64,000 nucleotides of DNA from Escherichia coli (lineage in GTDB: Bacteria > Pseudomonadota > Gammaproteobacteria > Enterobacterales > Enterobacteriaceae), in the NCBI RefSeq assembly GCF_003334255.1, contig NZ_QOWU01000005.1; one strand, 5' to 3'. The stretch's first letter is position 1, and every line of letters begins with the position of its first letter. Positions 2,842 through 48,554 of this stretch are shown here, one piece after another. Under the pieces are notes generated by a model. It was not told the DNA's origin. It worked only from the letters and a program-made list of their open reading frames with translations, and did not search any database. Position numbers and translations under genes: made by a program.

Positions 2842-3050
<209 letters not shown>

Positions 3051-3120
3051 GTAAATAATGACAAAAACAAAATTGGCCGTTTCGGTCAGGGCCAACTATT
3101 GCCTGAAAAAGGGTAACGAC

Positions 3121-7436: not shown

Positions 7437-7730
7437 CCGGCAATAGTTGCCGGATGCGGCGTGAACGCCTTATCCGGCCTACGGCTCTGTGCTCGGGTCT
7501 TGTAGGTCTGATAAGACGCGTCAGCGTCGCATCAGGCACTGAATGCCGGATGCTGAATAAACGCCTTATCCGGCCTACGGTTCTGTGCTCGGGACTTGTA
7601 GGCCTGATAAGACGCGCCAGCGTCGCATCAGGCACTGAATGCCGGATGCGGCGTGAACGCCTTATCAGTCCTACGGTTCTGTGCTCGGACCTTGTAGGCC
7701 TGATAAGACGCGCCAGGCAAAAAGCGGCAA
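7437..7730. repeat. REP/BIME array: about three tandem ~100-bp units of palindromic REP sequences
   Basis: Repeated GCCGGATGCGGCGTGAACGCCTTATCCGGCCTACGG...GTAGGCCTGATAAGACGCG units between wzxC and wcaK; overlapping ORFs 7372..7764(-) and 7421..7783(+) are repeat artefacts. Confidence 0.7.
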
Positions 7731-35935: not shown

Positions 35936-35980
35936 CTTATTCCTCTTTAAACCTGTCTGAACCGTTATCAACCGCGCAAT

Positions 35981-36019
35981 AAAAAAGCCCCCGGAAGGTG
36001 ATCTTCCGGGGGCTTTCTC
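35981..36019 (-). terminator. his attenuator terminator hairpin
   Basis: On the - strand: GAGAAAGCCCCCGGAAGATCACCTTCCGGGGGCTTTTTT, between hisL and hisG. Confidence 0.8.
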
Positions 36020-36077
36020 ATGCGTTCATGCACCACTGGAAGATCTGAATGTCTTCCAGCACACATCGCCTGAAAGA

Positions 36078-36128
36078 CTAGTCAGGATGATGGTGATGAT
36101 GGTGGTGTTTAAATTGAACGCGTGTCAT
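36078..36128 (-). CDS. hisL: his operon leader peptide (MTRVQFKHHHHHHHPD)
   Basis: Reverse-strand reading of ATGACACGCGTTCAATTTAAACACCACCATCATCACCATCATCCTGACTAG gives 16 aa with seven consecutive His codons. Confidence 0.9.
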   Translation of the reverse strand: MTRVQFKHHHHHHHPD

Positions 36129-36410
36129 AAAAGTCTCTGTGAATGTTTATTCAACTGATGTCTTTTAACCTAAACCACTTTCACGTTAGAAAGCAAGGGC
36201 TTTTTTATATATTTTATGGCAATGGATTTGTTTAATGAATGAGCGGGGAAAGGAGGGGGCTAAGAGGACTGTCCTCTAAGCTGACGGCACCAAAAATAGC
36301 GAAGCCTGGATTTTCGTCTCACTGACAATACCTTGATCTACAAACTAATTAATAAATAGTTAATTAACGCCCATCATTGTACAATGAACTGTACAAAAGA
36401 GGAGATTGAC

Positions 36411-36662
36411 ATGCGTACAATTAGCTACAGCGAAGCGCGTCAGAATTTGTCGGCAACAATGATGAAAGCCGTTGAAGATCATGCCCCGATCCTTATTACT
36501 CGTCAGAATGGAGAGGCTTGTGTTCTGATGTCACTCGAAGAATACAACTCGCTGGAAGAGACGGCTTATCTACTGCGCTCCCCCGCTAACGCCCGGAGAT
36601 TGATGGACTCAATCGATAGCCTGAAATCAGGCAAAGGAACAGAAAAGGACATTATTGAGTGA
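36411..36662 (+). CDS. yefM: Antitoxin YefM (Phd/YefM family)
   Basis: ORF 36384..36662; start placed at [32 protein letters not shown]; 4-bp overlap with yoeB. Confidence 0.9.
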
Positions 36663-36913
36663 AACTAATCTGGTCTGAGGAATCATGGGATGATTATATG
36701 TACTGGCAGGAAACAGATAAGCGAATTGTTAAAAAGATCAATGAACTTATCAAAGATACCCGCAGAACGCCATTTGAAGGTAAGGGGAAGCCAGAACCCC
36801 TGAAACATAATTTGTCAGGTTTCTGGTCCCGACGCATTACAGAGGAGCACCGTCTGGTATACGCGGTTACCGACGATTCACTGCTCATTGCAGCATGTCG
36901 TTATCATTATTGA
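36659..36913 (+). CDS. yoeB: Toxin YoeB (RelE-fold ribosome-dependent mRNA interferase)
   Basis: 84-aa [71 protein letters not shown]. Confidence 0.92.
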
Positions 36914-36995
36914 ACAGATTCATTCATAGAATGAATTGTCAGTTTTGATACGCTAGCGTAGCCTTATAGATCTAAGGTGTATCAGGAGATAACGG

Positions 36996-37820
36996 ATGAA
37001 AAAGGTCGCAATTGTCGGGTTAGGGTGGTTAGGCATGCCGCTGGCGATGTCACTTTCAGCGCGAGGCTGGCAAGTCACCGGGAGTAAAACCACACAAGAT
37101 GGTGTCGAAGCGGCCCGAATGAGTGGCATTGATAGCTATCTGCTTCGCATGGAGCCTGAGCTAGTTTGCGATTCTGACGATCTGGATGCCCTGATGGATG
37201 CCGATGCGCTGGTCATTACGCTTCCGGCACGTCGTAGCGGCCCCGGCGATGAGTTCTATTTACAAGCGGTACAAGAGTTAGTGGATAGCGCGCTGGCTCA
37301 TCGTATTCCCCGAATTATTTTTACCAGCTCAACATCTGTCTATGGCGATGCGCAAGGCATGGTGAAAGAAACTACCCCGCGTAATCCGGTAACCAACAGT
37401 GGACGAGTATTAGAAGAACTCGAAGACTGGCTGCACAATTTACCCGGTACTTCGGTCGATATTCTGCGTCTTGCGGGCCTGGTCGGACCGGGGCGTCATC
37501 CCGGACGCTTCTTTGCCGGAAAAACCGCGCCTGATGGTGAACATGGTGTTAATTTAGTCCATTTAGAAGATGTTATTGGCGCTATCACTCTGTTGTTACA
37601 GGCACCTAAAGGCGGACACATCTATAATATATGTGCGCCAGCTCACCCTGCGCGTAATGTTTTCTATCCGCAGATGGCCCGTTTACTGGGGCAGGAACCT
37701 CCGCAGTTCAGAAATAGTCTGGACAGCGGCAAAGGTAAGATTATTGATGGCAGTTGGATTTGTAATGAACTGGGATTTGAATACCAGTATCCCGATCCGC
37801 TGGTAATGCCGCTGGAGTAA
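36996..37820 (+). CDS. yeeZ: NAD(P)-binding epimerase-like protein YeeZ
   Basis: 274-aa ORF with N-terminal MKKVAIVGLGWLGMPLA Rossmann motif. Confidence 0.85.
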   Translation: MKKVAIVGLGWLGMPLAMSLSARGWQVTGSKTTQDGVEAARMSGIDSYLLRMEPELVCDSDDLDALMDADALVITLPARRSGPGDEFYLQAVQELVDSALAHRIPRIIFTSSTSVYGDAQGMVKETTPRNPVTNSGRVLEELEDWLHNLPGTSVDILRLAGLVGPGRHPGRFFAGKTAPDGEHGVNLVHLEDVIGAITLLLQAPKGGHIYNICAPAHPARNVFYPQMARLLGQEPPQFRNSLDSGKGKIIDGSWICNELGFEYQYPDPLVMPLE

Positions 37821-38795: not shown

Positions 38796-39061
38796 AGAAA
38801 AATTATTATGACAAGCCTCTCATTCTCTTGTCATTTCCCCCCCATTTAGGCACAATGCGCCGCTGTCAAAAAATGACTAAAAACCGACGTTTCATCAGCG
38901 TCGGTTATTTTTTGCTTCAAACCAATCATTCATACCAAGAGGCCGGGCTTCGTACCGGATAGATATTTACTAAAAATCGACAGTTGTTGTCGCTGAGGAA
39001 TCCAAAAAAATGGGGCAATTTTTTGCTTACGCGACGGTTATCACCGTAAAGGAGAATGACC

Positions 39062-47192: not shown

Positions 47193-47375
47193 TTAACAAC
47201 AGCCTTCTTCTGTATGCAGCAAGGCAAAAAGTTCTGTAACTCCATTGTTATTAACTGCACTGGTTACTAACACGTTGTGCGCTCCAGCTTCCCGTAACCA
47301 ACTTTTCACCAAAGATATTTGTTCCATGCTGGCTAAATCTGCTTTGGTTACTACTCCAATGACCGGGTGATTCAT
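47193..47375 (-). pseudogene. C-terminal fragment of an EutP/PduV-family small GTPase (yoeF-like relic)
   Basis: Only the last ~60 aa (MNHPVIGVVTKADLASMEQISLVKSWLREAGAHNVLVTSAVNNNGVTELFALLHTEE) resemble EutP/PduV; the upstream part of the called ORF runs antisense over the IS66 fragment. Confidence 0.5.
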
Positions 47376-47442
47376 GGCCCGGTAGGGCGTTTTTACCTCT
47401 AATTCCTGCTTCAGCGCTGAGATTCCTGCTTGTTGCCGGAAA

Positions 47443-47575
47443 AGCAGGCACCTGCCGTCTGAACGGTATCGATCCGGAAGCGTATCTGCGCCATATTCTG
47501 AGCATACTGCCGGAATGGCCCTCCAACCGTGTTGACGAACTCCTGCCATGGAACGTAGTTCTCACCAATAAATAA
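47443..47575 (+). pseudogene. 3' fragment of an IS66-family transposase gene
   Basis: Translation AGTCRLNGIDPEAYLRHILSILPEWPSNRVDELLPWNVVLTNK* matches the conserved C-terminus of IS66 TnpC-type transposases; no upstream transposase body is present. Confidence 0.6.
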
Positions 47576-47989: not shown

Positions 47990-48184
47990 TTACAGCAACT
48001 GGTGAGGGCTGGCATAAGTTGCCGGTGTTTCGGTAGAGTCACGGTCATCCACCACGCGGAGTGAATAACCGTTTTCAGCGGCCTTATTAATCAGTTCAGT
48101 GATATTAACACCATCAATGTCAACGACAATGTGCCCCATATCCAGCGCCTGTACGTTAACGCTGTCGGCTTCCAGTGTCATCAT
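47990..48184 (-). CDS. yeeW: Small prophage protein, YeeW-like
   Basis: 64-aa ORF immediately downstream of cbtA, overlapping its stop by 4 bp (ATGA). Confidence 0.55.
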   Translation of the reverse strand: MMTLEADSVNVQALDMGHIVVDIDGVNITELINKAAENGYSLRVVDDRDSTETPATYASPHQLL

Positions 48185-48554
48185 TTCGCCTCCGGATACT
48201 TACCCAGGGTAATGTTATTTACCGTTCTGTAATTGTCGCGGGTCATCAGGCCGGTCGCCCTGCGAGCCCGGAGGATATCGATGCTGTTTATTAACTGAGA
48301 GCGGGTACAGGCGCTGAATCCCGGCTGGTCGGTAGCACCAGCGCGTATTTTTCCACGAGAAAGTTCACCGCATCACACAGTGAAATGCCTGCCTCAATAT
48401 GCTGCTCAATCACACGTTCATCGGCAAAAGGTGTGTCATTCAGTGTGAGGCCATAGTGCTGGTCCAGCAGTCGGGACAGCAGTATCTGCCAGATTTCAAC
48501 AGGAGACGGGCGAGAACTGGCCGCCTGCCCGGGTAATACAGGTAATGTTTTCAT
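48181..48554 (-). pseudogene. cbtA: CbtA (YeeV) cytoskeleton-binding toxin gene, disrupted by a -1 frameshift
   Basis: ORF 48291..48554 gives the CbtA N-terminus ([73 protein letters not shown]); the C-terminus ([50 protein letters not shown]) continues in another frame from about 48300. Confidence 0.75.

Follow-up and report, generated by a model that had tools for sequence, protein, structure and literature searches.

The physiological role of the chromosomal yefM-yoeB module of Escherichia coli is debated. Christensen et al., in 2004, are said to have found that Lon degrades YefM, releasing YoeB. The repressor of the operon is YefM, as a dimer, with YoeB acting as corepressor (PMC1802561). 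The operator consists of a long (L) and a short (S) repeat, both of which Kedzierska, Lian and Hayes footprinted with YefM and with YefM-YoeB (PMC1802561); that study numbers the yefM ATG as +21 and places at -7 another ATG, which is not used. Free YoeB binds, as a dimer, in the ribosomal A site and cuts the codon found there, with Glu46 and His83 as the general base and the general acid, respectively (PMC3814384, PMC6821326). The roles of Glu46 and His83, of Arg59/Arg65 and of the C-terminal Tyr84 are described in PMC3814384. Helix alpha-1 of YoeB presents a hydrophobic surface that contributes to the dimer interface, and two of its residues, namely Trp5 and Trp10, also contact YefM (PMC6821326).

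Here we analyze a yefM-yoeB locus in a stretch of 64 kb of DNA, referred to as the window. We conclude, with a probability of about 0.96, that this locus is the canonical E. coli chromosomal type II toxin-antitoxin (TA) operon yefM-yoeB, and that it is complete and in all likelihood functional. This reading is based on the intact frames, the identity of the two proteins, their matches to family models, the catalytic residues, the operator, the ribosome-binding site, and a chromosomal position equivalent to that in K-12.

The gene pair and its chromosomal setting

Open reading frames were listed and the sequence was inspected over positions 36100-37300. The locus consists of two small genes on the same strand, the antitoxin gene first and the two frames overlapping, which is the organization of a YefM-YoeB type II system (Table 1). 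The overlap is the tetranucleotide GTGA at 36659-36662, which includes both the GTG start of yoeB and the TGA stop of yefM. A preliminary description of this DNA had placed the pair at 36411-36913 with a 4-bp overlap, and both the coordinates and the overlap are exact. It had also proposed an alignment with characterized YefM and YoeB proteins as the means of verification, and the outcome bears the identification out. That is, in a search of all PDB chains YefM is identical at 83 of 83 positions to chain A of 2A6Q, 'Antitoxin YefM' (E = 1.8e-49), while YoeB is identical at 83 of 84 positions to the 'Toxin YoeB' of 2A6Q (chain E), 2A6R, 2A6S and 4V8X (E = 2.2e-56).

Family models give the same assignment. 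YefM scores 186.6 bits against the NCBIfam equivalog NF008499, 'YoeB-YefM antitoxin YefM' (curated cut-off 121), and 48.3 bits against TIGR01552 (cut-off 20.8), and it matches the Phd/YefM family of Pfam, PF02604, at 7e-28. YoeB scores 132.4 bits against the NCBIfam equivalog TIGR02116, 'Txe/YoeB toxin' (curated cut-off 51.8), and matches the Txe/YoeB family of Pfam, PF06769, at 2.9e-43, with the full model, 1-80, covered. Its matches to the RelE/StbE model TIGR02385 (22.8 bits versus 27.9) and to the YafQ model TIGR00053 (22.8 versus 87.25) fall below the curated cut-offs; such weak, sub-threshold matches agree with a shared RelE-type fold without membership in either subfamily. Judged by these scores, therefore, YoeB has the superfamily fold common to RelE/StbE and YafQ, yet is outside both subfamilies. 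Glu46, Arg59, Arg65, His83 and Tyr84 are all found in the translation of yoeB, and the catalytic residues are conserved in all five of the PDB homologues aligned. The anti-phage defence models of PADLOC matched none of YefM, YoeB, CbeA and the truncated CbtA.

RefSeq annotates yefM and yoeB in the many complete E. coli genomes that match the 661 bp around the pair at 99.8% identity. The order of the genes is hisD - hisG - hisL/His leader on the minus strand, followed by yefM - yoeB - yeeZ - yeeY - yoeI - plaP on the plus strand; it matches that in strain 600468 and, inverted, that in K-12 MG1655, so that the pair occupies the orthologous position between hisL and yeeZ. The chromosomal location next to the his operon in the preliminary description agrees with the histidine operon leader found here, with hisG and hisD further to the left.

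Table 1. Positions in the window of the yefM-yoeB locus, its signals, its neighbors and other elements.
Feature	Position	Strand	Remarks
naRNA4 (REP-derived), first copy	2910-2980	-	Rfam
algC RNA motif	3067-3116	+	Rfam
naRNA4 (REP-derived), second copy	7601-7671	-	Rfam
JUMPstart element	13009-13047	+	Rfam; presumably the start of the O-antigen cluster
Histidine operon leader	35979-36102	-	Rfam His_leader, RF00514; 131.6 bits
hisL	36078-36128	-	divergent from yefM; start codons 282 nt apart
Variable cassette (promoter/operator, yefM, yoeB), ~660 bp	~36259-36918	+	from alignment with the TA-less strain D2
Operator long (L) palindrome, TCATTGTACAATGA	36374-36387		perfect 14-nt palindrome; primary YefM binding site; the L repeat footprinted in PMC1802561
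-10 hexamer TACAAT, yefM-yoeB promoter	36380-36385	+	within the L palindrome; predicted by mapping the numbering of PMC1802561 onto the sequence
Operator short (S) palindrome, core TGTACA	36390-36395		direct repeat TGTACAA, spacing 12; as in PMC1802561
Shine-Dalgarno AGAGGAG	36398-36404	+	6 nt ahead of the yefM ATG
yefM	36411-36662	+	Phd/YefM family antitoxin, 83 aa; ATG at 36411, TGA 36660-36662
Possible Shine-Dalgarno AAGGA for yoeB	36645-36649	+	9 nt ahead of the yoeB GTG
yoeB	36659-36913	+	Txe/YoeB family toxin, RelE-type fold, 84 aa; GTG start, TGA 36911-36913
Single-nucleotide variant, YoeB L14M	36698	+	A (C in K-12 and the nearest complete genomes), CTG to ATG; from DNA alignment
Hairpin TTCATTC-ATA-GAATGAA, then TTGTCAGTTTTG	36919-36935		just past the cassette, upstream of yeeZ
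yeeZ	36996-37820	+	downstream of yoeB
sRNA STnc240	38841-38915	+	Rfam; downstream of yeeY
cbtA	48181-48554	-	toxin gene of the cbtA/cbeA pair of the CP4-44-like island; 1-nt deletion relative to K-12 between 48335 and 48334
cbeA	48643-49011	-	antitoxin gene; intact, one substitution, D108G

YoeB residue 14 and variation among strains

Over the 661 bp, the window differs from K-12 by five substitutions and no insertion or deletion. One of these is at 36371, in the promoter spacer, three are synonymous, and one is non-synonymous, namely the change of Leu14 of YoeB to Met (L14M). The underlying C to A change at 36698 is the sole difference from the nearest complete genomes. At the position of YoeB residue 14, the five structurally characterized homologues aligned have L, E, K, K and C, so that this position is not conserved. 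It is nevertheless on helix alpha-1, where residue 14 adjoins Tyr13 and, by helical periodicity, would be one helical turn from Trp10 and roughly on the same face.

Among the 4192 complete RefSeq E. coli genomes matched in yoeB by a 57-nt query centered on 36698, none had the exact L14M allele. The exact 84-residue protein with Met14 is, on the other hand, recorded on 48 other contigs, versus at least 1000 for the common allele, and is named 'MULTISPECIES ... YoeB [Escherichia]' by NCBI. Five of the contigs encoding this protein were fetched (L004-L008), and the his - yefM - yoeB - yeeZ context is found in all five. Three of them, L004, L007 and L008, are identical to the window across the 661 bp, while L005 and L006 represent a lineage that diverges from it by ~3.4% over 6 kb. 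The M14 allele thus occurs on two DNA backgrounds and in independent samples, always with an intact yefM. A comparison of yefM and yoeB in the window with those of the L005/L006 lineage gives 13 synonymous substitutions and no non-synonymous one, which implies purifying selection on both YefM and YoeB; this 13:0 pattern shows that a YoeB with Met14 can be maintained over the long term.

These data also bear on whether L14M alters the toxin, i.e., whether an attenuated YoeB, a less stable dimer or a different mode of YefM binding makes this module unlike that of K-12. The allele is missing from the 4192 complete genomes, and the location of residue 14 on the dimer-interface helix, beside Tyr13 and a turn from Trp10 (PMC6821326; the geometry being our own estimate), would allow for such an effect. 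Nevertheless, we regard it as quite unlikely: the replacement of Leu by Met is a conservative hydrophobic change, characterized homologues have L, E, K or C at this position, the catalytic residues are all unaffected, and the allele persists on 48 contigs, from independent samples and two backgrounds, with yefM intact in every case. L14M is a rare, naturally segregating, conservative substitution, and one that is probably tolerated on helix alpha-1. Residue 14 is mentioned in neither PMC6821326 nor PMC3814384, and we found no assay of the M14 toxin in the literature. A more specific proposal, which we consider very unlikely, is that L14M changes the stability of the YoeB dimer or its affinity for YefM and so shifts the threshold for toxin release, e.g., upon heat, in the lineages that carry it. 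Were this true, the two M14 backgrounds, one of them a single base away from the common allele and the other ~3.4% divergent, would be the outcome of repeated mutation, or of the transfer of a variant under selection, and not of drift.

The module as a whole is a discrete cassette that varies in its presence. At least 80% of the 661 bp is covered in 4212 of 5426 complete E. coli genomes (about 78%), while ~1200 of the 5426 match the last 42 nt only; that is, about 22% are without the cassette and have ~217 bp with two inverted REP-like units in its place. In one of these, the TA-less strain D2, the 425 nt from hisL to yeeZ contain no gene, and ~217 bp (L003:2283-2499) replace positions ~36259-36918 of the window. 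The left boundary of the cassette is approximate (36258-36271), and the right boundary is 5 nt past the yoeB stop. The G+C content of the cassette is 43.7%, versus 51-54% in the flanking genes.

A REP-like sequence is present in the D2 filler as two copies in inverted orientation, and its consensus has four more copies in the window, two of which overlap the Rfam matches to naRNA4. The filler therefore appears to be REP-like, an assignment based on the inverted repeat, the four copies in the window and, in part, what we take to be the REP consensus. A search of Rfam with the filler found no family. The segment AAGCGGAGCGCATCAG in the filler, which MAFFT aligned with yefM codons 7-11, was considered as a remnant of yefM and rejected, as it belongs to the second REP unit. 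The hairpin just past the cassette is also found in TA-less strains, and is thus part of the flank and not of the cassette. A 61-nt stretch that includes it has a predicted folding energy of -14 kcal/mol (z = -2.6), and the hairpin could act as a weak terminator or as a regulatory element of yeeZ.

Operator, start codons and reading frames

Paired TGTACA palindromes that overlap the -10 box are found upstream of yefM, no more than 80 bp from its start codon. The L and S cores are 12 bp apart, center to center, and the second TGTACA begins two bases beyond the L palindrome. The composite TCATTGTACAATGA-N2-TGTACA has one exact match in the 64-kb window and none in 100 shuffled sequences (0 expected). 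In the L005/L006 lineage, the L palindrome has a G to A change at the equivalent of 36386 (TCATTGTACAATAA).

Mapping of the published numbering onto the window would place the start of transcription at 36391. The ATG at 36384 then coincides with the -7 of that study, which indicates that the register of the numbering fits and that the start of the 83-residue YefM is right. Because the -10 box is within the L palindrome, binding of the repressor would occlude it. A simple sigma-70 promoter scan missed the promoter of yefM, owing to the weak match of the -35 box, 17 bp upstream. The only promoter-like site that was called, antisense within yoeB, and one terminator-like site were taken as chance matches, as their counts do not exceed those expected from shuffled sequence.

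A YefM of 92 residues, initiated at the upstream in-frame ATG at 36384, would accord with the mechanical list of open reading frames, in which the frame begins at that codon. This start is highly improbable, however. The codon, at -7, precedes the mapped start of transcription, and the product of over-expressed yefM starts at +21 (PMC1802561). In addition, it is the codon at 36411 that is preceded at 6 nt by AGAGGAG, and both the NCBIfam equivalog and the crystallized protein begin with the Met encoded there. We thus rejected the longer form, which also lacks a Shine-Dalgarno sequence at its first codon.

The notion that yefM or yoeB is a pseudogene, through a frameshift or a premature stop, can hardly be entertained: full-length alignments to the crystallized proteins and to K-12 DNA reveal neither lesion in either gene, both proteins align without gaps from end to end, the 661 bp contain no insertion or deletion, and we found no evidence in favor of it.

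The preliminary description was thus right that the pair is intact, with both frames open over their full length. It had further counted yefM-yoeB as a second TA locus in the window besides the cbtA/cbeA of the island; that other pair, however, is not intact. The deletion in cbtA shifts the frame after codon 73 and gives a product of 87 residues versus 124. Many complete E. coli genomes share exactly this cbtA allele (100% identity), which RefSeq labels a 'frameshifted' pseudogene. By their reading frames, therefore, yefM-yoeB is the intact one of the two pairs examined. At the edge of the same island, an open reading frame for 118 residues (47193-47549, minus strand) resembles, from neighboring RefSeq annotation only, the EutP/PduV-like fragment yoeF of K-12 and strain 7/2.

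Proposed mechanism and comparison with known systems

By analogy with K-12, we expect the copy in the window, its M14 toxin included, to behave like the K-12 pair in toxicity, neutralization, repression and proteolysis. As published for that pair, yefM and yoeB would be co-transcribed from a promoter whose -10 box is inside the operator, and the GTGA overlap probably couples the translation of yoeB to that of yefM. A YefM dimer would bind and block one YoeB. YefM alone, and more tightly the YefM-YoeB complex, would bind first the L and then the S palindrome, and thereby repress the operon. If the labile YefM is degraded by Lon and not replaced, the YoeB dimer would be set free, enter the ribosomal A site and cut the mRNA codon there, with Glu46 as the general base and His83 as the general acid, so that translation stops.

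The locus is already known; it is an ordinary E. coli module and holds nothing surprising to a specialist. The value of the analysis is in the correct annotation of one of the best-characterized TA modules, which allows the locus to be labeled with confidence. What it adds to a first reading is modest, namely the rare L14M allele, the polymorphism between the ~660-bp cassette and REP sequence, and the frameshifted cbtA. Together, these three points exemplify the accepted view that TA modules on the chromosome vary and can be dispensed with.

[quoted passage not shown] It differs from the pair in the window at five nucleotides in 661 bp, and L14M is the sole change in protein. Axe-Txe of Enterococcus faecium pRUM and YefM-YoeB of Staphylococcus aureus (PDB 6L8E, 7BWF) belong to the same two families and share the gene order and the toxin C-terminus ...YHY. 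They are distant homologues, however, at no more than 96.6 bits versus 190.8 for the E. coli protein, and their operator sequences differ from that of E. coli (PMC7730913); Axe-Txe, in addition, is plasmid-borne, unlike the chromosomal pair studied here. RelJ-RelK (Rv3357/Rv3358) of Mycobacterium tuberculosis (PDB 3OEI/3CTO) has homologous folds, with sequence matches at E = 3.9e-15 for the antitoxin and 1.5e-24 for the toxin, but it is from another organism and another locus, and its sequence identity is low. Finally, RelB-RelE, YafQ and HigB represent ribosome-dependent toxins of the RelE fold that, like YoeB, cleave mRNA in the ribosomal A site; what sets YoeB apart from these is that it is a dimer when bound to the ribosome and that its acid-base pair is a classical Glu/His one (PMC3814384, PMC6821326).
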